The notes under the pieces are model-generated. The model did no database searches and was not told the DNA's origin. It worked only from the letters and a program-made list of their open reading frames with translations. A DNA stretch of 64,000 nucleotides from a virus: IMG/VR virus record IMGVR_UViG_3300037882_002024, positions 7,245 to 71,244 of that record; one strand, given 5' to 3'. Shown here piece by piece: positions 3,692 through 45,960 of this stretch (positions are counted from its first letter, which is position 1; the number at the start of each line of letters is the position of its first letter). A program made the translations under genes and the position numbers.

Positions 3692-3729
3692 AAAAAATAG
3701 TTGACAGGGCATGGGAGTGCGTGTAGAAT
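3692..3729 (+). promoter_or_regulatory. sigma70-type cassette promoter
   Basis: A-tract-TAG-TTGACA(3701)-17 bp-TAGAAT; box at 3761; ACCGAGGCAGG RBS at 3779. Confidence 0.9.
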
Positions 3730-3791
3730 ACCCTCACAAGGCAAGCACAACGCAAGCCAACTAAAAAGTTTTAGTCACACCGAGGCAGGCC

Positions 3792-5069
3792 ATGAAATTA
3801 GCACGACCAGCAAATTGCAATCGTTGCGGGAAGCGAATGGTAGCAGGCAGCAATGTGATCGCCGACGCGTTGGGCGGCTGGTGTCATGCAGGCTACTGTT
3901 CGGCATCCCGCAGCCCCGTTGACGAGCTTGATGGCCTGATTGATGACACGCTCCCAGCTTCGACAGGTGACGCTGCGGATGTTGCTGCAATGGTCGTCAC
4001 CGCGAGCGCAGGCGCTTCGGTAGCCAGCGTGAAGCAGGAAGTATCATTTCAACTTGCAGGCATCAAGAAAGACCTTGAGGGGCAAGTGCATCGCCGCCTC
4101 GAAACAACTTTCAACGAGCAGATTCCCGTTGTGGTGGCCGACATCAAGCGCAGCGTGCAAAGCGGCGTGTCGCCTGTGTTGCAAGAGATGCTGGGGCAGG
4201 CTATCACCGACATGAAGGTGGAGCAACGCCGCCAGATTGCACAGTTCCTCAATCAGGGCATCGTTCGCCAAGAAATTATCATCATCGACGGGCTTACCAA
4301 GCGCGAGATGAAGGGCGAAGTATTTCACGCACGCTTCGAGTGGGTCTTAAAGCTGGCCCGCGCAGGCAAACCGATCTTCATTCCGGGGCCGACGGGGGCA
4401 GGCAAGACGCACTTAGCCGAGCAGGTAGCACGCGCGCTGGGGCTGCAGTTCGGTATGATTAGCTGCTCGCCGGGGATGACCGAAAGCAAGCTCACCGGGC
4501 GCTCGATCCCTAACATTTCCACGGGCGAGGAAGTCTTTCGGACAACAGAGTTCATTAAATGCTACGAAGACGGCGGCGTGTTCCTCTTCGATGAAATGGA
4601 CGCCGCCGACCCTACCGTGCTGCTTGTCATCAATGCAGCCCTTGCGAACGGCATGCTACCGTTGCCCGAACGCAAGGATAAGCCCATCGCGAAGCGCCAT
4701 AAAAACTTTGTGTGTATCGCTGCAGCAAACACGTGGGGCACCGGGGCCGACCGGCAGTATGTAGGCCGCAACCGTCTCGACGAAGCAACGCTCGACCGCT
4801 TCCGCATTGGTATTGTGCCTGTCGATTACTCGCCTGCGGTCGAGCGCCACCTGTGCCCGGACGGCGACCTGTACGACCTGCTGCTCAAGTGGCGTGAAGG
4901 CATCCGCGCGAACCGCTTGGAGCGCGTGCTATCGACGCGCTTCATTCGAGACGCTCACGACATGCTCCAGATCGGGGCCTCGTATGCCGAGATTGCTCAC
5001 GCGTTCTTCTCTGGCTGGCCTGCAGAGCAAGTGCGTAAGGTTTACGGCGGTGACCTGCCTGCGCTCTAG
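3792..5069 (+). CDS. MoxR/CbbQ/CobS-like AAA+ ATPase
   Basis: Walker A GPTGAGKT, Walker B FLFDEMD, AANTWGTGADRQYVGRNRLDEATLDRF sensor/Arg-finger region. Confidence 0.88.
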   Translation: MKLARPANCNRCGKRMVAGSNVIADALGGWCHAGYCSASRSPVDELDGLIDDTLPASTGDAADVAAMVVTASAGASVASVKQEVSFQLAGIKKDLEGQVHRRLETTFNEQIPVVVADIKRSVQSGVSPVLQEMLGQAITDMKVEQRRQIAQFLNQGIVRQEIIIIDGLTKREMKGEVFHARFEWVLKLARAGKPIFIPGPTGAGKTHLAEQVARALGLQFGMISCSPGMTESKLTGRSIPNISTGEEVFRTTEFIKCYEDGGVFLFDEMDAADPTVLLVINAALANGMLPLPERKDKPIAKRHKNFVCIAAANTWGTGADRQYVGRNRLDEATLDRFRIGIVPVDYSPAVERHLCPDGDLYDLLLKWREGIRANRLERVLSTRFIRDAHDMLQIGASYAEIAHAFFSGWPAEQVRKVYGGDLPAL

Positions 5070-5090
5070 CAGGCCTTGCCCGGCGGGGAA

Positions 5091-5128
5091 AAAAAATAGT
5101 TGACATTTCCCGCCGGGCCTGCTAGATT
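5091..5128 (+). promoter_or_regulatory. sigma70-type cassette promoter inside an inverted repeat
   Basis: AAAAAATAG-TTGACA(5100)-17-TAGATT; ACCGAGGCAAG at 5147; arms 5067-5091 and 5106-5124 are complementary. Confidence 0.88.
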
Positions 5129-5159
5129 ACTTCTGCCCCACAAACTACCGAGGCAAGAC

Positions 5160-6035
5160 ATGAACATTGAAGCGATTGACGGCGCGGCCTTTGGCAAGCG
5201 CGGCATATTCTGCAAAATGGCCTTTGACGGCATCGAAGACCAAACAGTAACAGCCGTTGCGTCCTACAGCAAATACCGCACGAACTACGAGTCGGACATC
5301 CGCTACGACGACGCGGCGTTTGTCGGCAGGGATTTTGCAAGTTGGAAGGCCGTCTACGACGCGGTTGTTAGTCCGTGGGAAGAGGGGCTTGGCATCGTTG
5401 ATTCGATCCTTGCAGAGCTTGAGGGCAGCCTGCCCAAGCCGAAAGAGATTCGGCGGCGCGGGCGTTGGTCTGAGGAAGGCGGCGAAGAAGTGAGCGTGGA
5501 TCGCTACCGTGCAGGCGAGCCTTTCTTTTACGAGATTGCTCCGCGCCCTGTGTCAGGGCCGCGCCTTGTCACGCTGGTAGTGCAGATCGGTGGCAACTGC
5601 CACTTGGCAAGCCGCGACCTGTTGATGCGAGGGGCCGTGGCGGTGGCATTGTCCCGCATCCTTGAGGACGCAGGCTATCGCACAGAAATTGTGGGCGTGT
5701 CGGCGGCGTTGCGTGCCTACCAAAATGGCGACGGCCTCATCTGCGTGACGAGCATCAAGAAGGCCTCAGACCCGCTCGACGTTGTGGCGTTGACCAACGC
5801 GTTTTCGGGCTGGTATTTCCGCACTGTTTACTTTGCAACCATGCACGCCAATGGCCTGCGTATCGGCTGGGGCCGAGGCTCGTCGTTTAACATTGATCAG
5901 AAAGTAGCCGAGTACGTGGCCACCGGGGCTGCGCGGCCGTGGTTAGTGAGTGGCTTCTACAGCATCGAAGGCGCTGTGGCTGTAGCCAAGGCGCTCTTGG
6001 AGCAATTAGAGAAAGGCTTGGATGATGTGTGTTAA
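5160..6035 (+). CDS. VWA-like partner of the MoxR-type ATPase
   Basis: ATG right after ACCGAGGCAAG; RLVTLVVQIGGNC...RGAVAVALSRILEDAGYRTEI beta-alpha pattern; directly follows the AAA+ gene. Confidence 0.6.
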   Translation: MNIEAIDGAAFGKRGIFCKMAFDGIEDQTVTAVASYSKYRTNYESDIRYDDAAFVGRDFASWKAVYDAVVSPWEEGLGIVDSILAELEGSLPKPKEIRRRGRWSEEGGEEVSVDRYRAGEPFFYEIAPRPVSGPRLVTLVVQIGGNCHLASRDLLMRGAVAVALSRILEDAGYRTEIVGVSAALRAYQNGDGLICVTSIKKASDPLDVVALTNAFSGWYFRTVYFATMHANGLRIGWGRGSSFNIDQKVAEYVATGAARPWLVSGFYSIEGAVAVAKALLEQLEKGLDDVC

Positions 6036-6474
6036 GTGTGAGCAGAACAGCCGCATGAAGCGGCAGTCGCATGTGGAGTATTACCAATGCGAACGTGAAG
6101 GCGTCCTGATGTCGTTCAATGTCTCGGCGGCGCGGGCGCTGCTGGCCGCAAAGCCACGCGCCCAGCGGCGGGTAGCCGTGGCCCCGTTGCACGAGGCTAC
6201 AACGGAAGGCGCTGCTATCCACGAAGGGCATCTGGCGCACGTGGACATGAGCGACCCTGTGTTCCTTGCGCTGGTACACGACCAAGAGCTAGGCGACGAC
6301 GTGGCGTACCTTATCGACGGCTTGCATCGCGTCGAGCGTGCGCAGCGCGAAGGGCGCGACTACATCGAGGCTTTCTTCTTTGAGGCGATCGAGTCTTCGC
6401 AGTTGCTTATTCCGCCCGAAGTCGCTAGTATGCTTGCAGCGCTCGACGCGCCCAACGGAATGCAAAGTCTGTGA
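6022..6474 (+). CDS. ParB/Srx-like domain protein
   Basis: YLIDGLHRVERA matches the ParB/Srx IDGxHR motif. Confidence 0.55.
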   Translation: MMCVKCEQNSRMKRQSHVEYYQCEREGVLMSFNVSAARALLAAKPRAQRRVAVAPLHEATTEGAAIHEGHLAHVDMSDPVFLALVHDQELGDDVAYLIDGLHRVERAQREGRDYIEAFFFEAIESSQLLIPPEVASMLAALDAPNGMQSL

Positions 6475-6498
6475 CTAAAAAATTTTAGCGAGAGGATT

Positions 6499-8889: not shown

Positions 8890-9341
8890 TGGCTCTGGAC
8901 TGGATGCCGATGGGGGCGCCGCTTGTCGATGCGGCCCCGTTGCCTAATCGGCTGCGCCTGCTGCGTGGCTGGAATCCCGACGAAGATGGGCCGTACCTTG
9001 CAGACGAATACGTCGTTGAGTATTACCAGCCTAATACCAAGTATTACCAAGCGCTCGCGGCGCAACTGCGCACGCAGGCCTTGGCGAATCTCGGCGTGTG
9101 GTTCGTGATCCAGTATTGGGATGACGCGCCCCATGTGCAGTCGTGGCGCACGCACGGTGCGTTTCGGTATTGCTTCGAGGCCCCAGCAGAGTTTGACGAG
9201 CGCGGCCTCGTGCAAGGCGTGAAGGCTGTCGTCGCGATTGTGGGCCGCAAGGACCGCGAAGCCGCCGCCAAGAAGGGGCGCAAGCCCAAGAGCAAGACAC
9301 AGCACGCGCCCAGCCCGCGCAGCGAATGGGAAAAATTCTAA
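8889..9341 (+). CDS. hypothetical protein
   Basis: TAATG coupling to upstream gene; stop lies in the next promoter repeat. Confidence 0.6.
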   Translation: MALDWMPMGAPLVDAAPLPNRLRLLRGWNPDEDGPYLADEYVVEYYQPNTKYYQALAAQLRTQALANLGVWFVIQYWDDAPHVQSWRTHGAFRYCFEAPAEFDERGLVQGVKAVVAIVGRKDREAAAKKGRKPKSKTQHAPSPRSEWEKF

Positions 9342-9376
9342 AAAATAGTTGACATTGTGGCCGCAGATGGTATATT
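9340..9376 (+). promoter_or_regulatory. sigma70-type cassette promoter
   Basis: AAAAAATAG-TTGACA(9349)-16-TATATT with TG extended -10. Confidence 0.85.
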
Positions 9377-9446
9377 GTCTTCACGCAGATGCGAGCGCGC
9401 CCCAGCGCTTAACCGAACCCCTAAGTGGGTTGTCCGCAATCAGTAG

Positions 9447-9857
9447 GTGTTGCGACTTATGGCCGATGACAGATTGCTCCTGATATGCCTCAGCACGCCC
9501 GGCGCGCAGGCCTACTACGATGGCGCAGCCACCTACGCGCAATGGCGCGCTGAGGCCGAATTGCATCACCAAGAACTACTTCTCGTCGTGCGCGAGGCTG
9601 TGAGCTTTTCGCGCACGCGCCTTGAGCCGCCAGAGTTTTTGCAGCACAGGCTTGGAGAGTTTCGGCCGTCCTGCGTGCTGCACTTCGGCGACGGCAAGGC
9701 TGTGCGGTGGGTGTCAGCCTACATACCCGTGGTGGCCGTGAGTGATCCCGGCAATATGCGGCTCGTGCAGGCTGCGACGGAAATAGCCGACATCGCCAAG
9801 GCGGGGTATACGTCTGTGGAAGAGTGCGATGGGTGCGTGACCCTTCGCCGACGCTAA
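9447..9857 (+). CDS. hypothetical protein
   Basis: ORF downstream of promoter; TAA stop supplied by box 9854. Confidence 0.55.
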   Translation: MLRLMADDRLLLICLSTPGAQAYYDGAATYAQWRAEAELHHQELLLVVREAVSFSRTRLEPPEFLQHRLGEFRPSCVLHFGDGKAVRWVSAYIPVVAVSDPGNMRLVQAATEIADIAKAGYTSVEECDGCVTLRRR

Positions 9858-34359: not shown

Positions 34360-34372
34360 CAGGAGCGGGACC

Positions 34373-34721: not shown

Positions 34722-34768
34722 GATCTTACAGGCGCAGTTGTTGCGCCTGTCCAACCGAGGCAAGGCAA

Positions 34769-35053
34769 ATGAACGCTAACCAACTATTCACGATCATTGA
34801 CCGCCAACAAGCCGCGATCATTCAAGACGTTTGCAATGCGACCAGCGCCGCAGAAATGCAAGCGGCTGTGAGCAAGATGGCTCTGGTGACCGACCTGTGG
34901 CGCGAAGCAGGGCGCGAAGTGGCTGTCGGATGTGTAGCGCGAGCCATCATCAATATGTGCGACTTTCGCGCTAAGAACGCCGGGACAACGAAGGAAGAGC
35001 GAGTAGCCTTCTGCCTTATCCCAGCCATGCTGAAAGAGGCTAAAATTTATTAG
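34769..35053 (+). CDS. hypothetical protein
   Basis: ATG after RBS repeat; TAG stop in box 35040. Confidence 0.7.
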   Translation: MNANQLFTIIDRQQAAIIQDVCNATSAAEMQAAVSKMALVTDLWREAGREVAVGCVARAIINMCDFRAKNAGTTKEERVAFCLIPAMLKEAKIY

Positions 35054-35077
35054 TCATTCTCAGAAAAATAGTTGACA
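35040..35077 (+). promoter_or_regulatory. truncated cassette promoter (box, A-tract and -35 only)
   Basis: Box 35040, AAAAATAG-TTGACA(35072); no -10-like hexamer at 17 bp and no leader/RBS repeat. Confidence 0.7.
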
Positions 35078-35314
35078 ACTGCCCGCGAAGCCGTCAAGCA
35101 GGACGATGCAGACAGCGCCCTCGTTCGTTTGGCGCGGTGCCTGCTCGTTAAGGCCAAGCCAGCAGGCCTTAACGCGCTGCTTGATGACTACGAACCGATC
35201 TTTATCGACGCCGTCGAGCCTCACGTTGACAGCGTCGCTATCTACGCACACGGCCTCAAGATCATCGTCAAGGCGGCGCTGGTCAGCGAGGCCCCACAGG
35301 AGAAGGCAGTATGA
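35072..35314 (+). CDS. hypothetical protein, start uncertain
   Basis: Open frame beginning at the TTG of the truncated promoter; ends in ATGA overlap with the kinase gene. Confidence 0.4.
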   Translation: MTTAREAVKQDDADSALVRLARCLLVKAKPAGLNALLDDYEPIFIDAVEPHVDSVAIYAHGLKIIVKAALVSEAPQEKAV

Positions 35315-35949
35315 AGCTGATGATCGTAATGCAGGGCGCGCCCGGTAGCGGAAAGTCCACCGAGGCCAAGCGCCTGCAAGCAGAGTTCGGGATCGACGCC
35401 ATCGTGAGCGCTGACGACTACCACACAGGCGCTGACGGAGTTTACCGCTTCGACTATCGGCGTGTCGGGGAGTGCCACGAGAGGGCGCAGAACGCCGCGC
35501 GGCTTCTGATGATGGAGAGCAAGTCGCTCATCGTCGACAACACGAACATATGGGCGTGGGAAGCCAAGCCGTATGTTGTGCCTGCTGTACTCCACGGGTA
35601 TCTTATCGCCTTTGTCCGGTGCCATGAGAATCGACCGAACATTCATGGCGTGCCCGAGGACAAGGTGCGTCAGATGCGAGACAGCATGGAGCCGCTAACT
35701 GTTCAGCACTGCCTTTCGGCGCTGCGGCCAAACTCGGCAGCGTCGGCAATGAAAGCCGCTCGCGAAGGAAGCTACAGCCTTTGCAAGGCTGCTGGCGCTG
35801 CGCTTGGTTCAGGGCCTATTCCGATGCTAAGCGCTCCGGCTGCTGTCATCGGCGAGCCGAGTCCGTACAACTACTCTGCGGCCAAGCTGGCCGAGCAAAG
35901 CTACGCAGGGGGCAAGAGTGAAAATCAGAATGTACCTGATGACGTGTGA
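35311..35949 (+). CDS. P-loop kinase (AAA_33 / polynucleotide kinase-like)
   Basis: MQGAPGSGKST, IVSADDY, SLIVDNTN, NIHGVP. Confidence 0.8.
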   Translation: MKLMIVMQGAPGSGKSTEAKRLQAEFGIDAIVSADDYHTGADGVYRFDYRRVGECHERAQNAARLLMMESKSLIVDNTNIWAWEAKPYVVPAVLHGYLIAFVRCHENRPNIHGVPEDKVRQMRDSMEPLTVQHCLSALRPNSAASAMKAAREGSYSLCKAAGAALGSGPIPMLSAPAAVIGEPSPYNYSAAKLAEQSYAGGKSENQNVPDDV

Positions 35950-36547
35950 CGGGCGTGAAGACGCGCTGAGCGAGACGCTGTGCAGCCTCGCGGAGTCGGA
36001 TTGGCCAGAGATGGCCGTGGTGGTCCGCGACGTGCATCGCCTGCCCGACCGCAAGGCCTCGCAGACTGCTACGGCGCTGCGCATCTTCGAGATGGCGCAA
36101 GGCCCCGAGTGCGACTACGTAGCCTTCTGCGAGGACGACATCCTGTTCAACAAGTCGATCTACGAGAATCTGTGCAACTGGAAGCCTCTGCAAGACGGCG
36201 CGCTGGTGGCGTCGGCGTACCATGATAAGGCTGTAGAGAAGGCGCCCGGTAACACGATTCTCGTGCCCTACGACCGCGTGGCAGGCTCGCAATTTTTGCT
36301 TGTGAAGAAAAGCTGGCTACCCGAATTGCTTGCGTGGTGGCCTTGCGTCGGCGACGACCTGATGCAAGACCTGCGCGTGTACCGGGCGCTTGGCATGCAA
36401 CACTCGCATGTCTACTTGCACGCGCCGACACTCGTGCAGCATCAGAGCAGGCCTTCGACGTGGGGCGGCGGGGCGCACCGTAGTCCTGTGTGGAATCCTT
36501 TCTGGCGGCACGACGAAAAGATTTTAGTCCATTCTGAAAAAAAATAG
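35918..36547 (+). CDS. glycosyltransferase-like protein (GT-A fold)
   Basis: MYLMTCDGRE, YVAFCEDDILF (xED/DxD-like), PTLVQH. Confidence 0.6.
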   Translation: MKIRMYLMTCDGREDALSETLCSLAESDWPEMAVVVRDVHRLPDRKASQTATALRIFEMAQGPECDYVAFCEDDILFNKSIYENLCNWKPLQDGALVASAYHDKAVEKAPGNTILVPYDRVAGSQFLLVKKSWLPELLAWWPCVGDDLMQDLRVYRALGMQHSHVYLHAPTLVQHQSRPSTWGGGAHRSPVWNPFWRHDEKILVHSEKK

Positions 36548-36575
36548 TTGACAAGAGCGCCCCGGCTGCTAAGAT
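36514..36575 (+). promoter_or_regulatory. box plus cassette promoter
   Basis: Box 36514, A-tract-TAG-TTGACA(36548)-16-TAAGAT; ACCGAGGCAAG 36596. Confidence 0.88.
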
Positions 36576-36608
36576 ACTTACATCGCCCAACCCAAACCGA
36601 GGCAAGCC

Positions 36609-36824
36609 ATGAGCAAGATCAAAGTAAGCGACTACTGTGCAATTGACGGCAAGCCGGGCCAAATCCGCTACATCAAAGAAGACGGTCCCTACACGTGGTA
36701 TGGCGTGAGCCTGCTTAACGAAGGCGAACGCGTTGATGAGTGGCAGGCCTGCCAAATCCAAGTGCTGACGCCAAGTGAAGGCGGACGGCTTGCAGCTAAA
36801 TGGATGGCTGAAAACAAAAAGTAG
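36609..36824 (+). CDS. hypothetical protein
   Basis: ATG after RBS repeat. Confidence 0.7.
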   Translation: MSKIKVSDYCAIDGKPGQIRYIKEDGPYTWYGVSLLNEGERVDEWQACQIQVLTPSEGGRLAAKWMAENKK

Positions 36825-36875
36825 CACAGTGCAAGGCGGACTAAAAATTTTTAGTCCGTTTTCTTTCTTGACCTT

Positions 36876-37235
36876 GTGACCGTGGAGCGTGCAATGGGCA
36901 TCCAACTTCAAAAAGATAAGCAGCGCATTTACTTTATCGGCGACACGGAAGGCCTGCGCGACAAGATTCGCGTACTCGGCGGGCGCTATGACTTCAAGCG
37001 CAACCAGTGGTGGGTAAGCGCTGTGATGCAAAGCGAGGCGGTGGCCATGCTCATCGAGGCGCAGAGTGACAAGGCGCCTGCCTGCGCGGCGAGCTTGCAG
37101 GTAGTCGGCGAAGTGCAGCGCAACGGGATCACGTACTATGTGGTGAGCTTTGCCGATCATGGCAAGCGCGTGCGCTTTGTCTCGGCCCCGGACGCCGAAG
37201 GGCGCTTTCGCGACTTCTACGCCATGCCTTGGTAG
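36876..37235 (+). CDS. hypothetical protein (LGGRYD...WWV motif)
   Basis: ORF after box 36841; start uncertain. Confidence 0.5.
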   Translation: MTVERAMGIQLQKDKQRIYFIGDTEGLRDKIRVLGGRYDFKRNQWWVSAVMQSEAVAMLIEAQSDKAPACAASLQVVGEVQRNGITYYVVSFADHGKRVRFVSAPDAEGRFRDFYAMPW

Positions 37236-37331
37236 AGTTCAAGGTTCACGGCAAAATTTTCGTGAAGGCATCCGAACTCACGCAAGGCTGGAACTAAGCG
37301 ACTTACAGGAAGCAATTGTTCGCCCGCACAC

Positions 37332-37763
37332 ATGACAGAGGAAGGCATGACTGAGAAAGAGCTAAACGATCTAGCCGATGTGTACGACGGCTGCGAGCTT
37401 CGGCTGATTGACCCGCAGCAGCCTTGGCTAGGCTACAAAGTCGGGGACACAGGCGCGGTAATTTACCGCGACGGCGTTGGTGGCTTGATGCGTCTAATGC
37501 GCATCAAGAAGGTCGGCAGGCGCCGTTTTATCGCGACGCGCGCGGAAGTTGTGCAAAGCCTCATAGCCAATGGAGAAGGCGCAGCAGCCGAACGCGCTCG
37601 CAAAGCAGACGAGGCGCTGGCGTATTGGGAGCGGCGTTTTTGCGACGCCTTCGGTGTGGACCCGCAGGCGCTCCAGTTCAAGCGGATCGCCGTGCGCGAG
37701 ACAATGCGCGACCTGCAAGCGTGGGCAGGGTGCCACGGCTGGGAAGACGGAGCGCCAGAGTAA
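37332..37763 (+). CDS. hypothetical protein
   Basis: GAGGAAGG RBS favours ATG 37347. Confidence 0.55.
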   Translation: MTEEGMTEKELNDLADVYDGCELRLIDPQQPWLGYKVGDTGAVIYRDGVGGLMRLMRIKKVGRRRFIATRAEVVQSLIANGEGAAAERARKADEALAYWERRFCDAFGVDPQALQFKRIAVRETMRDLQAWAGCHGWEDGAPE

Positions 37764-37784
37764 TTACAACGTCCAGCGCCCCGG

Positions 37785-37845
37785 CTAAAAATTGTTGACG
37801 CTGCAGGGCTGCACTGAGATAATGACAGTCACTAAAAATTTTTAG
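37785..37845 (+). promoter_or_regulatory. cassette-type promoter with box at the transcription start
   Basis: AAAAATTG-TTGACG(37795)-17-GATAAT; box 37832. Confidence 0.7.
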
Positions 37846-37858
37846 CCGGGAGCTTGCA

Positions 37859-38350
37859 ATGGACCGAGACGCAGTGGTAGCAACAGCTAAGACGTGGGGC
37901 GCACGCTTCGAGTTCTTCGATACGCGCAGCGTGTCCTTTTTGATGCCGAGTGAAGCAGCGGCCATAGAATGCTTCAAGCTCGTGCCGTGGCAAAGCACGA
38001 AGCCTGTGTGCTACCCTACAGGCTGGGCGGTCACGGTGTATCTTGACAGGCCCCGCATCGACAGTGTGCCGAGCGACGTGTTACCTGCACCCCTGCTTCT
38101 CTCCACGGGCCGGAGCGTTGTGTTTCATTGGAGTCAAGACGCAGGCGGGCCGCTCGCGTGGTTTATCTCGCCGCGCGGCCATGTAAGGCCCGACGAGCAA
38201 GCGCAGGCTGCAATGGTGCTACGCGTGTGGATGAAGCAAACGAATCGTATCGTAGAAGGAATTGACGATGGACCAATTTTACCGAACGGAAGTCTACCCG
38301 ACGCGCGCGCATTTGGCGAGCAACGAGGGTTTGATTGCAGTGGTCTATGA
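37859..38350 (+). CDS. hypothetical protein
   Basis: GGGAG RBS after box. Confidence 0.6.
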   Translation: MDRDAVVATAKTWGARFEFFDTRSVSFLMPSEAAAIECFKLVPWQSTKPVCYPTGWAVTVYLDRPRIDSVPSDVLPAPLLLSTGRSVVFHWSQDAGGPLAWFISPRGHVRPDEQAQAAMVLRVWMKQTNRIVEGIDDGPILPNGSLPDARAFGEQRGFDCSGL

Positions 38351-38540
38351 GGGGCGCTCGTTCGACGTGGCAATTGCTACGGCACACGAGCAGGCAGACG
38401 CTTACGGTGGCGTTGCGGACGTCAAGATGTCGTGCCCCACGAAGGTGACGACTTACGCGCATGCTAAGCGTGAGCCGGACACGCTCTACGACATGGTGCG
38501 CGGCGAGCAGGACTGCGACGAAGGCGACGCCGGAGCATAA
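38262..38540 (+). CDS. hypothetical protein
   Basis: AAGGA RBS; overlaps upstream ORF. Confidence 0.45.
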   Translation: MTMDQFYRTEVYPTRAHLASNEGLIAVVYEGRSFDVAIATAHEQADAYGGVADVKMSCPTKVTTYAHAKREPDTLYDMVRGEQDCDEGDAGA

Positions 38541-38571
38541 CAACCTATCGCCCGAACGAAAGGAAATAACG

Positions 38572-39069
38572 ATGGCTAAGGAGCCGAAGCAAGACAAGAA
38601 GAAAGACGCGCACGAGCTTGCGCTAGAGAGCGCAGCCAACAAAGTGGCCGACGAGTGCGCAGGCCTCGTGCTGGTGTGGGCCGATTGGGCCTTTGCGTAT
38701 CGTCTGCGCCTGCAGGATGAAAGCAGCGCCGCCACAAAGCCTCTCGGCTTTGCGACCAAGCCGATTGGTGACAAAATCATCATGATGGGGCGCGTGTTCG
38801 ATCATGGCGACGGGCTGCTCGTTATCTGCCCGGTGGCTTACCGGGAAGAGCACGAAGCGCGGCGGGCACGTGAGGCGCGCGCCAATCGGCTGCGCTGGTA
38901 TGAATTTTGGGACGGGGAGTTCAGTAAGGCAGGCAACGCGCCCGATGCCGACTACGCCACCGAGCGCGCAGCGGTGTACGACCTGCTGATCGAGTGGTCC
39001 AGAGATAGCAAGTTCGACGCACCTTGCCCTGCGAGCAGCACAGCGCCGCCGATGGAGAACAGCGTATGA
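38572..39069 (+). CDS. hypothetical protein
   Basis: AAAGGA RBS; ATG 38572. Confidence 0.6.
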   Translation: MAKEPKQDKKKDAHELALESAANKVADECAGLVLVWADWAFAYRLRLQDESSAATKPLGFATKPIGDKIIMMGRVFDHGDGLLVICPVAYREEHEARRAREARANRLRWYEFWDGEFSKAGNAPDADYATERAAVYDLLIEWSRDSKFDAPCPASSTAPPMENSV

Positions 39070-39440
39070 GTAGCCATAGTCAAGAGCCTTGGCAGCCGGA
39101 TGATCGTATTTGCGAAGGCGTTTCTTATTCTGTGATGCTGAGACCGGATGGAAAGATTCTGTTTACTTCGGATAACTCCGAGGTAAGCGAGATTCACGAA
39201 GACTTTGACGAAGAAGGTTTTCGTACTCAGTGGGACCAACAGGCCCGCGATGACTTTCAGCGTGCGTCTGTGTGCGTCAACGCCTGCACTGGCTTTGCGG
39301 CCCCTGAGTTCGTGCCCGCTGTAGTTGCTGCAGCGCAATCGCTATCAAAAGCGATCGTTTTGAAAGATGCGCAAAAAGAGCTTGACGCCAAAAAAGATTT
39401 AGCCAAAGCAATGGCTGCGTTACGAGGCGCCCCATTATGA
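39066..39440 (+). CDS. hypothetical protein
   Basis: ATGA overlap. Confidence 0.55.
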   Translation: MSSHSQEPWQPDDRICEGVSYSVMLRPDGKILFTSDNSEVSEIHEDFDEEGFRTQWDQQARDDFQRASVCVNACTGFAAPEFVPAVVAAAQSLSKAIVLKDAQKELDAKKDLAKAMAALRGAPL

Positions 39441-39760
39441 GCAGCCCTCAAGCAATTGCGCAGGCCTTCGCCGAAACGAACTGGCTTAATTTTACGGGCG
39501 ACGCAAGCTCCGGAGCTGTCTTCGACCGCGAGCGCGTGTTTCGCTACATGCTCTACCGTGTGAAAAAATGCTTAACTTGTACCAATCCATCCGACAAGCC
39601 GTTTTGCCGCCAAGCCGCTGACGGCAAGGTCAACGAAGCCTGCATTGATCGTTGTCATGGCAACCACCTAGGCATCCTGAGCGCTGAGTACGTGGCGTGG
39701 TACAATCGCCCGGAAGCCGAAGGCCTGCGACGCTCAATGGAAAAATTCCTCAAAAAATAG
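39437..39760 (+). CDS. hypothetical protein
   Basis: ATGA overlap; TAG stop in a relic promoter repeat. Confidence 0.55.
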   Translation: MSSPQAIAQAFAETNWLNFTGDASSGAVFDRERVFRYMLYRVKKCLTCTNPSDKPFCRQAADGKVNEACIDRCHGNHLGILSAEYVAWYNRPEAEGLRRSMEKFLKK

Positions 39761-39792
39761 TCCAGACACCTGCCCAGCACTACGGAGATGCA

Positions 39793-40173
39793 ATGCAACC
39801 ACTCACCTGCGATGAATGCTCCGGGGCCTGCTGTCAGTTTGTCAGCACGCCACCGGGCTTGTTCCCGATCTTCGCCTCACCGAAGTGGGACGGCCTCTAC
39901 ATGGCCGACACCGAAGACTATATTCATTGGGCCAGCATGCCTGCCGCGCTCCAAGACGAGCTACGCGCTGTGTACGCCGAGCGCCGCGAGGATGGACAGG
40001 CCTGCGTGTGGCTGCACGAAGGGCGCTGCAAGCACTACGTCCACAGGCCGGAAGCGTGCCGCAATGCTGTGACGGTAGGCGACGCAGCCTGTCTTGAGGC
40101 CCGCGACCAAGTGATCCAGCTTAACCTCGAACGGTTGCAATTATCTTTGCCAAAATTGAAGAAAAATAGTTGA
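39793..40173 (+). CDS. YkgJ-family Cys-cluster (Zn/Fe-chelating) protein
   Basis: CDECSGACC ... CVWLHEGRCKHYVHRPEACR. Confidence 0.75.
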   Translation: MQPLTCDECSGACCQFVSTPPGLFPIFASPKWDGLYMADTEDYIHWASMPAALQDELRAVYAERREDGQACVWLHEGRCKHYVHRPEACRNAVTVGDAACLEARDQVIQLNLERLQLSLPKLKKNS

Positions 40174-40198
40174 CAGTAGGGCAGGAAGCGGCTAAGCT
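40161..40198 (+). promoter_or_regulatory. cassette promoter
   Basis: AAAAATAG-TTGACA(40170)-17-TAAGCT; leader hairpin; ACCGAGGCAAG 40233. Confidence 0.88.
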
Positions 40199-40246
40199 AT
40201 TTTCACAGGCGCAACAACTGAGCCTAGCACTAACCGAGGCAAGACA

Positions 40247-40576
40247 ATGGCCACCATGATGACGTTCGCCGAAGCCTGTGAAAAACAACACCTGTACCAC
40301 TCGTACTACACCGTCTGGATCGTGAAGCCTGACGGCACGCGTATCTATCTGACGCATACCGCGCGCAAGTCAGGCAGTGGGCTGCTGGCGCTCTTCACCG
40401 GCGATTATGACGGCTACCGTGAGGCCTTACGCAAGGCCTTGCGCGAGGCTGGCGTGAACCCGGAAACCTGTCCGCTCGTCAAGAAGACGAAGAACGCATT
40501 GATCCTTGGCGACCTGTGGAAGGTCGAGTTTGGTGGCACCATCCGCCAAGAAGCTGCGGCTAGCAATAGCCGATAA
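40247..40576 (+). CDS. hypothetical protein
   Basis: ATG after RBS repeat. Confidence 0.7.
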   Translation: MATMMTFAEACEKQHLYHSYYTVWIVKPDGTRIYLTHTARKSGSGLLALFTGDYDGYREALRKALREAGVNPETCPLVKKTKNALILGDLWKVEFGGTIRQEAAASNSR

Positions 40577-40650
40577 CCTAAGTCGGGCAATTCGCCTTAG
40601 ACTTTAATTCCGCGCAGGCCTGCAAGCCTGCGCTATTTTAGGAGCGATCT

Positions 40651-41625
40651 ATGGGAACAATGGAACGGCGCTACGGAAGCAAGCGGCCCGCTGTAATTGC
40701 GAGCTTTCGCCTGCTAGGGCTAGCGCCAACGTATGCGGCTGGTGAACTAGAGCAACTGCCGTTTGGCAAGCCAAAGCACGTGTGGCTTTCCGCAACCAAG
40801 CGACTGGAGCGACACACTTTTCGTGGCGTTCCCGGCAACGGAATTACGATCCTTTTACCCGGCGCAGAACAGGATTCTCTGAGCGCCTTGCCAGCAGGAT
40901 GCGCTTGGGTTTGGCGTGTCTGCAAGAGGATCGGAAGCCGTGACCGCAAGGACGGCATTGAGATTGTAGTAACGCATTGGCGCGCGACAGACTGCGCGCA
41001 ATGGGAAGAAGCCTATCTAGGCGTTGATATGGGCAGCGATGTCATGACGATTATCGCTCGAACAGAGGACGGCCAGCACTTGTGGCAACAAGACTTTCGG
41101 CGCCTGCCGACCAGCTTGGAGAATTACGAGCTACGACGAATCTTTGAGTGGCAGCGGAACAAATTTTACGCTCACTTAACCTACCGCGAAACCGAGGAGA
41201 TTGCGCTAGCATTCTTAGGCTCCGTTGATCCAAGCTGGACCCTTAATGCTGCAAACCGCCTTGCTTCGCGCCTGCTGTACGGTTATGCGCGCGATACGGG
41301 ATGGCGCAAGCTAGCACTGCACGAGCAAGAGCGCTATGGCGTTACTGGCCAGTGGCACAAACAAGCGCAGCTTGATCTAATCAAGGGTGAGGCTGCAATC
41401 AGGGACTCAACAGGGGTCGGGGGATACACCAAGCAGGCAGCCAGCGGCCAAGTTCCCATCTACGGCGATTCTGCGCTTGTGGCTGTTGCTGAAGACTATG
41501 CCGACCGTCATGGCCTGCCTGCCGAAGTGCGCGCGCACATGCCAGCCAAAGCCTTTGCAATCTGGCTTCGCACGCAAGGTTGTGAAGAGCTAGCCAAAGC
41601 AGTCGAGGCTTGTGCGCCGTTTTAG
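40651..41625 (+). CDS. hypothetical protein (324 aa)
   Basis: AGGAG RBS; long ORF, no motif recognised. Confidence 0.65.
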   Translation: MGTMERRYGSKRPAVIASFRLLGLAPTYAAGELEQLPFGKPKHVWLSATKRLERHTFRGVPGNGITILLPGAEQDSLSALPAGCAWVWRVCKRIGSRDRKDGIEIVVTHWRATDCAQWEEAYLGVDMGSDVMTIIARTEDGQHLWQQDFRRLPTSLENYELRRIFEWQRNKFYAHLTYRETEEIALAFLGSVDPSWTLNAANRLASRLLYGYARDTGWRKLALHEQERYGVTGQWHKQAQLDLIKGEAAIRDSTGVGGYTKQAASGQVPIYGDSALVAVAEDYADRHGLPAEVRAHMPAKAFAIWLRTQGCEELAKAVEACAPF

Positions 41626-41640
41626 GAAACAGACAGGCGA

Positions 41641-41703
41641 CTAAATTATTTTAGTCGCTTTCAAAAAAAAATAGTTGACAGAGCAACCAGTCTCGGCTAT
41701 AGT
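41641..41703 (+). promoter_or_regulatory. box plus cassette promoter
   Basis: Box 41641, A-tract-TAG-TTGACA(41675)-17-TATAGT; ACCGAGGCAAG 41745. Confidence 0.9.
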
Positions 41704-41758
41704 ATTAGCACAGGGGCAGAAGTTGCCCTTAAACCTTAAACCAAACCGAGGCAAGACA

Positions 41759-42016
41759 ATGGAACGCATCGCAATTACAACCCTTCCCCGTGGCTCGTGG
41801 AAATATCAAGACGCCTTCGGTATCGCGCACTATGTCGCGGTCAAGGCCAAGGCTGGCTTCTACTACTGGAAGCGTGTGGCCTGCTCCAAGAAATACAGCG
41901 CCCCGCAGTTGCGGCGAATGGGATACGACGCCAGCAATGCCGGGGGCATCAACAAGCAACGCCTGACCCGCGCCGAAGTGGCCTTTGCAGTCTTCGCGCA
42001 AGCGCAAATGGTGTAA
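41759..42016 (+). CDS. small basic hypothetical protein
   Basis: ATG after RBS repeat. Confidence 0.7.
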   Translation: MERIAITTLPRGSWKYQDAFGIAHYVAVKAKAGFYYWKRVACSKKYSAPQLRRMGYDASNAGGINKQRLTRAEVAFAVFAQAQMV

Positions 42017-42075
42017 CGTAAACAAGCCAACAAGGCCACTAAAAAATTTTAGTGGCCTTTACTCAGGAGCAAGAA

Positions 42076-42324
42076 ATGAACGAAGCCTCATTGCCGAAGT
42101 GGGCGCAAGAACGCTTAGAGCGCTTTCGCAGCGACTTGCAGAAAGCACGCGAGCCGCTGCTCAAAGAGCTAGGAGTGCTGCGCCCCAAGGTTGAGTTGCT
42201 AGAAGCGCGCAACGCCGCGCTAGTGGAATTGCTACAGGCTGCCGCTAGGGGCGGGCACCTTGCCGCCGCCGACATCGTGCGGACACTCGAAGGCTACGAG
42301 CTACAACTCGTCAAGGCCGACTAA
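42076..42324 (+). CDS. coiled-coil hypothetical protein
   Basis: AGGAG RBS after extended palindrome 42032-42059. Confidence 0.6.
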   Translation: MNEASLPKWAQERLERFRSDLQKAREPLLKELGVLRPKVELLEARNAALVELLQAAARGGHLAAADIVRTLEGYELQLVKAD

Positions 42325-42336
42325 CCCGGAGCTAGG

Positions 42337-42798
42337 ATGTTTACGCGTTACTGCCTGTCGATCATCGACGGCGTGCTTTGTGTGCGCTGCACGCTGGCCA
42401 ACTACAGCCAGCCGATTGTTGCGCATCTGCACTGGCCAGCCCGCGAGAAGGCTGCGGACGTTGCGAGAACGCTCGGCCTTCCTGATTCCACGGGCCTCGT
42501 GACCGTGGACGTGACAGGCGGACATGACGGCTGCTATACGGCCTACAGCCAGCCAGACCAATTCGGGAGCCGCTACATGGCGCTGATCCACACCGTAGAC
42601 GGGGCACGCACGCAGCCGATTCTAACCGAAGAGCACCGCATCGTCGTGAAGTCTACGCGGCGCAACCCTGTCACCTACCGCAACGGCTTCTTCTTCAAGG
42701 CCATGGCGGCAGGCGAGACGCGCTTGCCGTGGACCGAGTTCGTGGACAGCTACGGGAGCCTGTTGCCATGGCCATGGTTCAAATTTCTGAAAAAATAG
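42337..42798 (+). CDS. hypothetical protein
   Basis: GGAG/AGG RBS; TAG stop in next promoter repeat. Confidence 0.6.
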   Translation: MFTRYCLSIIDGVLCVRCTLANYSQPIVAHLHWPAREKAADVARTLGLPDSTGLVTVDVTGGHDGCYTAYSQPDQFGSRYMALIHTVDGARTQPILTEEHRIVVKSTRRNPVTYRNGFFFKAMAAGETRLPWTEFVDSYGSLLPWPWFKFLKK

Positions 42799-42827
42799 TT
42801 GACAGCAGGAGCTAAGTCGGCTAAGCT
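42790..42827 (+). promoter_or_regulatory. cassette promoter
   Basis: AAAAAATAG-TTGACA(42799)-17-TAAGCT; GTCGCCCAA leader; ACCGAGGCAAG 42847. Confidence 0.88.
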
Positions 42828-42858
42828 ATTCTTGTCGCCCAACCAAACCGAGGCAAGT

Positions 42859-43119
42859 ATGAAGACTCTGCAAACGGCTGCTAACAACAACGCGATCAAC
42901 AACGTCAAGCTGGTGTTCAAAAAGTCCACCGTCAAGAAGTTTGCCTATCTGATTAACGAGGGCAAAGACGAGGCTGTGCTGGAGTTCCTGCGCTCCTGTG
43001 TGGCCGTGGCTCACTGCAAGGATTCCTTTGCAGCCGTCTTGGTACATTCGGGCCAGCGCTACACGAGCACGGGCCAGATTCACAACGCGCTGCGCGCATA
43101 CTACCAAGCCAAAGAATAG
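42859..43119 (+). CDS. hypothetical protein
   Basis: ATG after RBS repeat. Confidence 0.7.
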   Translation: MKTLQTAANNNAINNVKLVFKKSTVKKFAYLINEGKDEAVLEFLRSCVAVAHCKDSFAAVLVHSGQRYTSTGQIHNALRAYYQAKE

Positions 43120-43166
43120 CCTAAAATCTTGTAGTCGCCCTTCCTCAATGAACCGGAGCCAGTGCA

Positions 43167-43685
43167 ATGCCTTTTCACTTTGACGAATCGGAGCAAGACA
43201 CGCGCGGCGGGCGTGGCAAGACAACGCGCCGCAAGGGCACCAAAACCAATCGCGGGCCATACGGCCTGTGGCTCGCGCAGTGCAAAGAAGAGGACGCGCC
43301 CCGCTTGGCTGCCGAGAAGGCCGCGCGGCTGGAGCAAGAGCGCTTGGCCAAGATCGAGCGCGAGCGCGTGACGGACGAGTGCCTTGCGCTGGAGCCTTTT
43401 ATCCGTTACGGCGTCTACGAGACGCATACGCGAGCCACGAACGTAGCCGGTTACGCGCTTCGCGGAGACGTGTTCACGATGACAGTACGAACGGGGCTGT
43501 ACGAGGCAGAGGCCGAAGCAATCGGCATGGTTGAATTGGCCTTGCGGTACAAAGAGCAAGGCAAGTGGCCTCGTGACGGATCGACCTACGAAGTGCGTGC
43601 TGTGCTGTGCAAGTGGCGCGTTCATGCCGTGACGAAAAAAGGCGAGCGCCACATCAGCATCAAGCCCGTCGATGAGCAAAACTAA
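43167..43685 (+). CDS. hypothetical protein
   Basis: GGAG RBS; TAA stop in box 43682. Confidence 0.6.
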   Translation: MPFHFDESEQDTRGGRGKTTRRKGTKTNRGPYGLWLAQCKEEDAPRLAAEKAARLEQERLAKIERERVTDECLALEPFIRYGVYETHTRATNVAGYALRGDVFTMTVRTGLYEAEAEAIGMVELALRYKEQGKWPRDGSTYEVRAVLCKWRVHAVTKKGERHISIKPVDEQN

Positions 43686-43713
43686 AATAATTTAGTCGCC
43701 CGGAGCAACTGCG

Positions 43714-43893
43714 ATGAAGAGGAAAAAGAAGCAAGTGACCTTCGAGTGCCTTGGCGCTCTTGCGCAAGAGCGCGCGCTCGTTGATTACATCAATTTTTGG
43801 GCGCAGGAAGGGCAGGCTATCACCGAAGAGCAAGCGCGTGACCTGCTGCAAGGCGAGTCGTTTGCCGAAGACGGGACCAAGGTGGAACAATGA
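43714..43893 (+). CDS. small hypothetical protein (59 aa)
   Basis: GGAG RBS after box; MKRKKKQ...TKVEQ; ATGA overlap with next gene. Confidence 0.5.
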   Translation: MKRKKKQVTFECLGALAQERALVDYINFWAQEGQAITEEQARDLLQGESFAEDGTKVEQ

Positions 43894-44435
43894 AACCTCT
43901 CGAACGCACAACGCTGCCGGGGCTGTGGCGCTTCTGGCTCTGCATGGTAGACGATACGCTGTGCGTCGGGACGCTCAGCGCCCACAGCACGCAGCCGCGC
44001 TTTGCAATTGCCTGCATGCCGACCGTCGATCAAGGCGTCTTTGGCCTTACGCAGATGGCTTACCGCTTTCACGCCGGAGGCCTGCGAGACAAATTTTTGC
44101 GGCTAGCGCAGGTAGCTTACGTTATGCCGCAGACGGTAGCCGTGGAGTGTGAGCAAATGCGCGCAGGGTACACGGACTATGTGTCGTATGCCTGCCCGTA
44201 CAAGGTGCCGCCCATCTACCGCGCTTACCTCGACGCGCCGAGGCCTGCGCGCGTGCGCAAGGCCTCAGAGGTATGGTGGGACAACGGGCACTGGCACAAA
44301 CGGACAAACGCCAGCGCGCAGGCCGAGCGCATCGAGTGGGCGGCAGCGCTTCCCAAGCTACCTACTGAGTGCATGCACTACTACGAGCGCAAGCGCACCA
44401 CCGATGAAATTCTCGACGATCTGATGGGAGAGTAG
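43890..44435 (+). CDS. hypothetical protein
   Basis: ATGA overlap. Confidence 0.6.
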   Translation: MKPLERTTLPGLWRFWLCMVDDTLCVGTLSAHSTQPRFAIACMPTVDQGVFGLTQMAYRFHAGGLRDKFLRLAQVAYVMPQTVAVECEQMRAGYTDYVSYACPYKVPPIYRAYLDAPRPARVRKASEVWWDNGHWHKRTNASAQAERIEWAAALPKLPTECMHYYERKRTTDEILDDLMGE

Positions 44436-44585
44436 CATGTGGAGAGTAGAAGTAACATCGTCGCGCTACGATCATGCCGTGCTAGGCATTTTCTGGCACC
44501 GAGACGAAGAGCAGGCGCGCAGCCACGCAGCCGAGTTCGAGCATCACGGCTTCGGGGCAAAGGTTGTGGCGCCAGAATAATTCTG

Positions 44586-44623
44586 GAAAAATAGTTGACA
44601 GATGCCCGAGCGCCCGCTATATT
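44586..44623 (+). promoter_or_regulatory. cassette promoter
   Basis: AAAAATAG-TTGACA(44595)-17-TATATT; GTCGCCAA leader. Confidence 0.88.
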
Positions 44624-44671
44624 GTTCTTACAGTCGCCAACACTTAACCAATGCAAGACGGAGTCAAGACC

Positions 44672-45046
44672 ATGTCCGAGAACAAGTCCGAACCTATGTG
44701 CATCCTCATCACCTACTCGCTGTGCAAGGCCACGCTGCGGGGCCTCACGGTAGCCAACTCGGAGCGCGACCTACGCAACAAAATGGGCATGCGAATCGAG
44801 AACGAGTGCTGGGGCACGCTCTGCCCGGTTTCCGCGCACGTCGAACTGGATTTTAACCGCGACGAAGACAAGATCACGGTAGACATCACGGACGTGGACA
44901 GCGTCGCGTTGGCGCGGTGGCTGACGGCCGATGAATGCAATCTGAGCTACCTGAAAGACCTAACCAAATCCGCGCAAGTGGCCATGCTGGAGTTCATCGC
45001 GGAACAACTTGGAGAGCTACGCGTAGACGACAACGCAGACGACTAA
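44672..45046 (+). CDS. acidic hypothetical protein
   Basis: GGAG RBS; TAA stop in box 45043. Confidence 0.65.
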   Translation: MSENKSEPMCILITYSLCKATLRGLTVANSERDLRNKMGMRIENECWGTLCPVSAHVELDFNRDEDKITVDITDVDSVALARWLTADECNLSYLKDLTKSAQVAMLEFIAEQLGELRVDDNADD

Positions 45047-45104
45047 ATTATTTTAGCCGCTTGTCAGAAAAGAAGTTGACAAGCGGCCGTCCGCCCGCTA
45101 TATT
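45043..45104 (+). promoter_or_regulatory. box plus cassette promoter
   Basis: Box 45043, AAAAGAAG-TTGACA(45076)-17-TATATT; GTCGCCCAA leader; ACCGAGGCAAG 45128. Confidence 0.9.
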
Positions 45105-45143
45105 GATTTTGCAGTCGCCCAAAACCAACCGAGGCAAGTCATC

Positions 45144-45326
45144 ATGAAGCTCATTCGCGTTATGGAAGGTCTTTATCGCTCCGAGTGCGGCGGCATTCGT
45201 GTGGCCAAAGAAGCATGGAATAAAGACCTGCCTTGGGTTGTTTGCTGGACCGACTTCCTTTCTGCGCGGCATGAAAACAGATTCAAGACCCTCGCTGAGT
45301 GCCGCGCTTACTTGGCAGGCAAATAG
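45144..45326 (+). CDS. small hypothetical protein
   Basis: ATG after RBS repeat. Confidence 0.65.
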   Translation: MKLIRVMEGLYRSECGGIRVAKEAWNKDLPWVVCWTDFLSARHENRFKTLAECRAYLAGK

Positions 45327-45337
45327 GAATCAAAAAA

Positions 45338-45544
45338 ATGAACGCGATTTTCAATGAACAAGTGGTGGCCGAGCTTCTTGAGACGGCCTATGAGCTTGAC
45401 GGCCAAGGCCTCTTGCTGACGCACAGCGCGCAAGACAACGCCAGCATCGAAGAGCTATATCAACAGGGGCACCTTCGCTACGAAGGCGGGGCCTATCACA
45501 TTACGCGCAGTGGCCGGGCGCTGCTGCGCGACCTGAAACGGTGA
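45338..45544 (+). CDS. small hypothetical protein, winged-helix-like tail
   Basis: ELYQQGHLRYEGGAYHITRSGRALL resembles a wHTH wing; weak. Confidence 0.45.
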   Translation: MNAIFNEQVVAELLETAYELDGQGLLLTHSAQDNASIEELYQQGHLRYEGGAYHITRSGRALLRDLKR

Positions 45545-45547
45545 GAC

Positions 45548-45868
45548 ATGGCTAAGAAGAAAAAACAGAACATATTTCAGATCGTGCGCGCCGCTCGCCA
45601 AAAGTACGACGGCGCGTGCATCTTCGTTGCCGCCGAAGCCAACGACGGCTACTTTGTAGAAGGCCCCGACGCTGACCTTGTGGGCACCGTCGTGAAGCGT
45701 GAGCCTGTGGTGGAGATGCGCGCAGGCAAAGAAGTGTCGCGCCTACTCTTCATTCCACGGGAAACGCTTTACGCGCCCACCGGCATGGTGATGGGCTTTC
45801 AGCAGGTTGTGCAGGAGCTTTCTAAGCAGCGCCACCGCGTCATCAAGATCGACTACACGGAAAGCTAG
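45548..45868 (+). CDS. stand-alone MutS domain-I-like protein
   Basis: KYDGACIF...YFVEGPDA..V...FIP......VQELSKQRHRV resembles the MutS mismatch-recognition domain. Confidence 0.4.
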   Translation: MAKKKKQNIFQIVRAARQKYDGACIFVAAEANDGYFVEGPDADLVGTVVKREPVVEMRAGKEVSRLLFIPRETLYAPTGMVMGFQQVVQELSKQRHRVIKIDYTES

Positions 45869-45884
45869 GGCAAAAGATTCTGGA

Positions 45885-45929
45885 AAAAAATAGTTGACGA
45901 CGTCCGCGCAGCAGGCTAAAGTATTTTAG
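45885..45929 (+). promoter_or_regulatory. cassette promoter with box overlapping the -10
   Basis: AAAAAAATAG-TTGACG(45894)-17-TAAAGT; -10 lies inside box 45916; ACCGAGGCAAG 45948. Confidence 0.85.
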
Positions 45930-45960
45930 TCGCCCAACAACTAACCTACCGAGGCAAGCC

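Follow-up and report, generated by a model that had tools for sequence, protein, structure and literature searches.

We found that a 64,000-nt stretch of phage DNA (bases 7245-71244 of the 87,710-bp IMG/VR phage contig IMGVR_UViG_3300037882_002024; hereafter the window) carries many copies of one compact unit, or cassette, in which a sigma-70-like promoter, a short leader and a ribosome-binding site (RBS) follow one another directly before small genes that mostly belong to no known family. A sequence-only reading of the window had described the repeats in these terms, and motif counts, spacing and placement give that description good support. We consider that the repeats are probably expression cassettes for the RNA polymerase of the host and its primary sigma factor. 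Each would consist of an upstream (UP)-type A/T tract, proximally AAAAATAG and distally often an AT-rich box, CTAAATTATTTTAG, then a consensus -35 (TTGACA) spaced 16-17 nt from a good -10 (GCTAnnnT), which together would make a host sigma-70 promoter, and then an A/C-rich leader of 25-50 nt that either opens with a 5′ hairpin, probably protecting the 5′ end, or is unstructured (TCGCCCAAC), with a fixed ribosome-site context, AACCGAGGCAAGnCATG, at its end. Such cassettes would probably fire early in infection without phage proteins and would give uniformly high expression of small accessory genes, grouped into about 11 short operons in an 18.5-kb block. A probable second role is that of homology patches at which the ERF-type recombination system of the phage itself brings in, removes or exchanges genes. 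Promoter activity, early timing and a part in recombination are all plausible from the arrangement described below.

Exact copies of the promoter motif itself, AAAAATAGTTGAC, number 12 in the window, each on the + strand (0.00 in 100 shuffles), and 14 across the whole contig, on which our own codon-based caller placed about 123 genes, all likewise on the + strand and with a coding share of 86.5%. Three variant promoters lie at 31166, 37787 and 45068. The sequence-only reading had counted the same 12 copies and three variants, mostly with 16-17 nt spacers, and the one departure is the copy at 35064, which has no -10 element; downstream of every other copy TTGAC(A/G) is followed after 16 nt (four copies) or 17 nt (the others) by TAnnnT, usually in the form GGCTAnnnT or TGCTAnnnT. 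By sequence, then, 16 copies are sigma-70-type promoters with TTGACA, 16-17 nt and TAnnnT after AAAAATAG, and the latter, the 8 nt upstream of the -35, is invariant in 14 copies. All copies are intergenic and co-oriented with the genes. Canonical terminators (a GC hairpin plus T-tract) stand directly upstream of three outer copies (3693, contig 347 and contig 82729), a hairpin precedes 31166, an AT-rich box, itself a weak hairpin, precedes five array copies, and nothing of the kind precedes the rest.

The distribution of the copies is far from even. The eleven promoters said to lie within 32.7-46 kb are there, ten of them seemingly intact, so that 10 of the 16 intact copies fall in 13.3 of the 87.7 kb (P = 2e-5), and in this array the upstream stop codon lies 1-50 nt before the -35 and the ATG 31-55 nt after the -10. 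The 26-kb portal-to-tail block has no copy (P = 0.003) and no copy precedes a structural gene. Outside the array, copies head a ResIII helicase operon, an operon of SSB, a DUF3799 PDDEXK exonuclease and ERF (driven by the promoter at contig 82737, copy 82729), the AAA_5 ATPase gene, a DUF7192 gene followed by a C5 methylase gene, and a non-coding stretch with a tRNA cluster. It is because the cassettes are spread over non-structural modules in this way that we assign them, provisionally, to the early class. Could the repeats instead act at the level of DNA, for example in replication (as iterons), packaging or recombination, and merely look like promoters? Their co-orientation, clustering and repetition would suit such sites, but we regard this as highly improbable, given that the hexamer pair holds the 16-17 nt spacing of a promoter, that each copy occupies the gap directly before a gene with leader and ribosome site following at 25-50 nt, and that a relative also conserves both leader and ribosome site.

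When the copies are aligned (alignment A2) the order from 5′ to 3′ is box, AAAAATAG, TTGACA, spacer, -10, an initial transcribed region resembling ATCTTCACAG, a hairpin or unstructured leader, RBS and ATG. The box, CTAAATTATTTTAG, is present in five array copies, its TAA often ending the gene upstream, and is followed by a short aTTCTnnr tract; at the other end the cassette closes with AACCGAGGCAAG, 1-5 bases and the ATG, and similarity between copies ends exactly at this ATG and never inside coding sequence. The leaders, 25-50 nt long and 65-75% A+C, leave the Shine-Dalgarno (SD) sequence unpaired in predictions, and they do come in the two types that had been described. In the hairpin class, predicted 5′ hairpins begin 0-3 nt from the predicted transcription start at 32790, 34728 and 41710 (z -2.2 to -3.9), with a weaker one at 40205, and their stems (Table 1) vary in sequence while pairing is kept. 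The unstructured class has (G)TCGCCCAAC leaders at 36582, 42834, 44630, 45111 and 45928. The conserved 11-nt RBS context reported earlier likewise stands: besides the variant at 3779, the window has eight exact copies of ACCGAGGCAAG and the contig ten, all inside cassettes and 20-55 nt after the -10. The CCGAGGCA context is used by only 8 of the 123 genes, the others having assorted GAGG or GGAG sites.

This 11-nt context is the sole cassette element for which we see no ordinary explanation. One idea, which we think unlikely, is that the standard leader and ACCGAGGCAAG form the shared handle of a phage post-transcriptional switch, for instance a RegA-like translational repressor or a RegB-like site-specific RNase, that silences the whole early regulon, in which case the cassettes would be portable units by which this phage clade gains genes already fitted with that control.

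The upstream part of the cassette invites comparison with the UP element of the E. coli rrnB P1 type, in which the consensus comprises a distal A/T tract from -57 to -47 and a proximal AAAAAARNR from -46 to -38. Like it, the cassette has an A-tract adjoining a consensus -35 and, upstream of that tract, another rich in A/T (TTATTTTAG or aTTCTnnA); unlike it, the proximal 8 nt are invariant, their final TAG is not accounted for by the UP consensus, and binding by the alpha subunit is putative. If this invariance goes beyond the usual needs of alpha-subunit contact, are these middle-class or factor-dependent promoters, with AAAAATAG or the adjacent box as the site of a phage activator or repressor that sets their timing? 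Five copies have a palindromic box upstream at a constant distance, at one copy the box overlaps the -10, and each relative has its own variant of this box, which suggests a co-evolving binding protein. Nevertheless, near-consensus -35 and -10 hexamers at optimal spacing require no activator, about half of the copies have no box nearby, and searches of the contig for sigma-70 regions 2 and 4 found neither domain, so that we judge factor dependence quite unlikely.

The palindrome, CTAAA-N4-TTTAG, is of interest in its own right. It has 39 copies contig-wide at gene boundaries (886-63285 in the window) and none in a reversed control, and the next ATG lies 10-17 nt downstream; here, too, the TAA is often the upstream stop codon. 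Five related loci (L009, L212, L213, L215 and L219) each have a form of their own, namely CTAAAACGTTTTAC, CTAAAAAATTATAG, CCTAAGAGATCTTAGG, CTCAGAGTTCTGAG-like and TAAAAnnTTTTA, a pattern that suggests either a co-evolving binding protein or a hairpin. The -10/start region of the cassette (GGCTAnAnTatTTnaCAG) resembles the box, and in the last cassette a full box (45916-45929) overlaps the -10; a factor that binds the box could thus occlude cassette promoters. In both the window and L009 a box also stands a few nt after the -10 of the promoter between the portal and protease genes.

What lies behind the promoters fits the description of small and mutually unrelated genes: the 38 genes called in the array block have a median length of 106 aa, compared with 190 aa elsewhere (P = 3e-5), no paralogs were found among them, and the cassettes split them into about 11 short operons. 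The label of orphans, also given to them, holds in part, in that about 33 of the 38 match no Pfam or PHROG family, whereas the 321-aa protein encoded at 40660-41625 has at least 184 homolog clusters in an unnamed family. We found no Pfam or PDB sequence match for this protein. Its AlphaFold model is confident (pLDDT, the predicted local-distance score, 84), beta-rich in the N-terminal half and helical in the C-terminal half, and has no convincing fold match in PDB or AFDB; residues 152-250 show a weak likeness to sigma-factor domain 2 (Z 4.2-4.8) that is within the noise of helical bundles. A TnpB/RuvC-like identity, to which an Atlas lead had pointed, was rejected for want of any Pfam or PDB match or convincing fold match. 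Exact-sequence look-up of the 324-aa open reading frame (ORF) 40651-41625, which uses a longer start of the same gene, returned no record, and Atlas searches with two further array proteins yielded nothing usable. The family matches elsewhere in the array are a CxxCxxCC domain (39793-40173), DUF7239, DUF6011 (45961-46371), a partial N6 methylase (47194-47985) and a P-loop protein (35311-35949) that is AAA_33/polynucleotide-kinase-like (PHROG "polynucleotide kinase"). The gene for the last lies some 3 kb past the tRNA cluster, and its product could be part of an RNA-repair function.

Is the array block common to the phage group? The nearest relatives have portals only 57% identical to that of the window phage, and in five related loci (L009, L213, L215, L217 and L219) the homolog of a conserved 348-aa gene lies 0-2.1 kb before the portal gene, as opposed to 18.5 kb in the window phage, which leads us to regard the array as a lineage-specific expansion, by all appearances at a junction that is variable in all the relatives. 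Across seven related loci, homologs were found for just 2 of the 39 array proteins. The most informative relative is L212 (portal 57% identical), which begins 2.3 kb before its portal gene and has two complete cassettes, with AAAATAGTTGACA, GCTAnnnT, TCGCYYAAC and AACCGAGGCA, plus a third ribosome site, AACCGAGGC. These two are the best nhmmer hits to a profile of the window cassettes (E = 2e-8 and 8e-8) and the only hits that span leader and RBS. Just one of the six small genes of L212 has a homolog in the window phage; the same cassette stands before different genes there. Because leader and ribosome-site context are conserved at a divergence at which we would expect silent sites to be saturated, their conservation argues that the context is functional.

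A more distant relative, L219 (a 117-kb contig with 48% G+C), has five promoter repeats of its own at 3918-8490, before small genes and upstream of its gp348-portal pair, with the repeat unit TTTGTTGACAGTTAC, 13 nt, TGTAAGAT, an A/C-rich leader and AAACCGGAG. One of these promoters precedes a DUF6011 gene, as does the last cassette of the window phage. The two arrays share words (e.g., atcttcacaag), but the L219 units score only E = 0.33 against the cassette profile, and we therefore rejected homology and treat them as analogous. Pattern scans of IMG/VR and JGI metagenome contigs gave single chance matches only; the contigs concerned were unrelated, for the most part low in GC, and had no proteins in common with the phage.

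The cassettes also show signs of remodeling. Apparent scars include the half-cassette at 35039-35077, where the TTG of the -35 is the sole start available to the coding sequence, and the decayed RBS context (ACCAATGCAAG) of the copy at 44595; in addition, two cassettes outside the window have an intact ACCGAGGCAAG followed by extra leader before the real start. Between copies, stretches of as many as 39 nt are 90-95% identical, and genes for ERF, an exonuclease and SSB are present in the phage. These scars, identities and recombination genes fit, but do not prove, recombination of the kind described for promoter-early stem-loop (PeSL) cassettes. PeSLs are known from the T4-type phages RB49/phi1, PST/T4 and nt-1/KVP40 and combine an AT-rich tract, a sigma-70 promoter, a stem-loop and an SD in ORFan-rich hyperplastic regions; their role was defined by recombination between copies, seen as indels and replacements between close relatives, and by mini-circles (Arbiol et al. 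2010, PMC2839356; Comeau et al. 2014, PMC4122927).

The PeSL is the closest known system to the cassette, as far as anatomy can be compared, and the analogies drawn earlier to it and to the SPO1 host-takeover module both fit at the level of anatomy. As in PeSLs, a consensus sigma-70 promoter has an AT-rich tract before it and an SD closing the unit at the 3′ end, a possible stem-loop or terminator stands before some copies, the unit fills the intergenic gap as far as the start codon of the following gene, whose SD it supplies, and copies are concentrated in a hyperplastic region of small ORFans in a phage with recombination genes of its own. The pattern is in this respect fairly ordinary, being already known from T4-type phages. 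The differences are that the window phage is not T4-type but has an 88-kb genome with one coding strand, an HK97-type capsid and a portal-peptidase-MuF fusion; that a GC-rich terminator precedes only three or four copies, five others having the AT-rich palindromic box and the rest neither; and that leader and 11-nt ribosome-site context are standardized here and conserved in a relative. The SPO1 module is a looser analogy. It occupies a terminal region of the genome, and early expression of its products and their shutting off of host functions have been demonstrated (PMC6873191). Both are compact blocks, largely of small genes, whose several short operons have the kind of promoters and ribosome sites seen in highly expressed genes. 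The window block, for which early timing and a part in host takeover are possibilities, is placed between the 348-aa and portal genes rather than in a terminal region or terminal redundancy, and has no sequence relation to the module.

Do the cassettes need to take any part in gene turnover? They may simply be ordinary strong early promoters, alike because each was selected for contact with the same polymerase and the same ribosome, in an array that grew by illegitimate recombination. The -35/-10 spacer sequences are unrelated between copies, identity is restricted to functional blocks and never reaches coding sequence, and no swap has been observed, all of which this explanation accommodates. 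We nonetheless think it rather unlikely, since the half-cassette and the decayed and displaced RBS contexts indicate that cassettes serve as points of breakage and joining, stretches of 39 nt are 90-95% identical between copies, the phage has its own ERF, exonuclease and SSB, and L212 has the same cassette before different genes.

Several observations weigh against host-polymerase cassettes that double as recombination patches, and they should be set beside the evidence above. No close relative was found, and hence no gene swap at a cassette was seen. From the unlike spacers it follows that the shared blocks appear to be kept by function rather than by recent copying. The invariance of AAAAATAG is greater than a typical UP element needs. 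All relatives examined also have a sigma-70-like promoter in the gap from portal to protease gene (window 52362-52412; L009:13160, L212:6583, L213:13100, L215:14254, L217:14267), and promoters of host type thus seem not to be exclusive to early genes in this group. The fit to sigma-70 is one of sequence, and no RNA run was among the sequencing runs that match the phage.

If the cassettes are indeed what we propose, the PeSL-type layout of repeated promoter cassettes framing ORFans in a hyperplastic region would extend to a phage group unrelated to T4. The lineage, one of uncultured freshwater phages without a cultured relative, would also gain a regulatory map in the form of a likely early promoter consensus with UP element and a standard 5′ leader. 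The roughly 40 genes of the 18.5-kb accessory block, most of them without a family, are obvious candidates for host-takeover or anti-defense screens; the role in host takeover or anti-defense that the sequence-only reading gave them is plausible.

Table 1. Cassettes and related features of the window (window coordinates; promoter, leader and RBS elements as predicted).
Feature	Position	Strand	Elements
Terminator-promoter-leader cassette before AAA_5 ATPase gene	3647..3794	+	GC hairpin and T-tract 3647-3672; UP/-35 3693-3706; -10 3724-3729; leader with palindromic box 3761-3774; RBS variant ACCGAGGCAGG 3779-3789; ATG 3792
Cassette before DUF7192 gene	5092..5162	+	-35 5100; TGC-TAGATT extended -10 ending 5128; RBS ACCGAGGCAAG 5147-5157; ATG 5160
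Long-leader copy	9341..9461	+	16-nt spacer; TATATT; 76-nt structured leader without ACCGAGGCAAG; ATG 9459
Variant promoter	31166..31201	+	ATAATTAGTTGACA; 16 nt; TAGGAT
Hairpin-class cassette	32722..32835	+	Box CTAAATTATTTTAG, its TAA the stop of the upstream gene; UP; -35 32755; -10 32778-32783; 5′ hairpin AAGGCCA/TGGCCTT; ATG 32833; five genes downstream
Hairpin-class cassette	34660..34771	+	Box; UP; -35 34693; -10 ending 34721; hairpin CAGGCGCA/TGCGCCTG; ACCGAGGCAAG 34754; ATG 34769
Half-cassette	35039..35077	+	Box variant; UP; -35; no -10
80-aa ORF at half-cassette	35072..35314		Sole possible start is the TTG of the half-cassette -35; TAG directly upstream
Unstructured-leader cassette	36515..36611	+	-35 36548; TAAGAT; ATCGCCCAAC leader; ACCGAGGCAAG 36596; ATG 36609
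Variant promoter	37787..37861	+	AAAAATTGTTGACG; 17 nt; GATAAT; palindromic box 37832-37845 in leader; ATG 37859
Weak-5′-hairpin cassette	40137..40249	+	-35 40170; TAAGCT; ACCGAGGCAAG 40233; ATG 40247; then 109-aa and 321-aa genes
Hairpin-class cassette	41641..41761	+	Box within 9-bp stem; UP; -35 41675; TATAGT; hairpin GGGGCA/TGCCCT; ACCGAGGCAAG 41745; ATG 41759
Unstructured-leader cassette	42791..42861	+	-35 42799; TAAGCT; GTCGCCCAAC; ACCGAGGCAAG 42847; ATG 42859
Decayed-RBS cassette (44595 copy)	44587..44674	+	ACCAATGCAAG; new GGAG and ATG further downstream; ATG 44672
Variant cassette	45043..45146	+	AAAAGAAGTTGACA; box; -35 45076; TATATT; GTCGCCCAAA; ACCGAGGCAAG 45128; ATG 45144
Last cassette	45886..45963	+	-35 TTGACG 45894; -10 TAAAGT inside full palindromic box 45916-45929; GTCGCCCAAC; ACCGAGGCAAG 45948; ATG 45961 of DUF6011 gene
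Apparently lineage-specific hyperplastic block	30151..48714	+	tRNAs and about 40 small genes, between 348-aa gene (29104-30150) and portal gene (48715-51999)

As to the phage itself, Pfam identifies on the contig a portal-C39-MuF fusion, an S78 protease, an HK97-type capsid protein (Phage_capsid), a C5 methylase and an AAA_5 ATPase. The ERF-family gene is the last ORF of the contig and seems to run in frame into the first ORF via a 9-nt overlap (the SSB, exonuclease and ERF region covers contig 82737-87710 and 1-264), and because this ORF appears continuous across the ends, the genome is probably complete and circularly permuted. No tyrosine integrase was found on the contig, nor was a T7-type RNA polymerase, the search for the latter having had no positive control. 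DNA searches against deposited phages gave no match to the contig, and a search of sequencing runs yielded three freshwater DNA runs with sparse, low-coverage pieces of 151 nt that are identical to the phage rather than from relatives. The one lead to a host comes from the capsid, a relative of which (38% identical) is encoded on a 5-kb contig (CAYSUC010000398.1, our L222) of an uncultured Planctomycetaceae metagenome-assembled genome. It was the only one among 185,579 species genomes, and 400 further genomes of the same phylum gave no match; Planctomycetota is possibly the host phylum of this phage clade.

Some further observations concern single loci. A 12-bp inverted repeat, CCCGGCGGGAAA / TTTCCCGCCGGG (with an extra G in the left arm), flanks the UP and -35 of the promoter at 5100 (window 5079-5117). 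Behind the variant promoter at 31174 come about 0.7 kb without an ORF and then the tRNA cluster at 31922-32358; the region 31202-32358 has tRNA-Asn, tRNA-Arg and an odd tRNA-like gene, and Rfam recognizes tRNAs only. The gene at 47967-48392 has homologs only on unrelated high-GC phage pieces without cassettes, and on one of these (L228:468-1408) the homolog directly follows a GH19 endolysin gene, which hints at a lysis-related role. A large gene at 21960-24968 is interrupted by an intein bearing a LAGLIDADG domain; its relatives have a weak Terminase_6C match and are annotated as terminase, and it is probably the large terminase gene. Finally, two small tandem paralogs at 20381-20635 and 20880-21122, 29% identical, end in a common 25-nt tail, CCGAAATTCC(G/A)CTAAAATAATTTAG.

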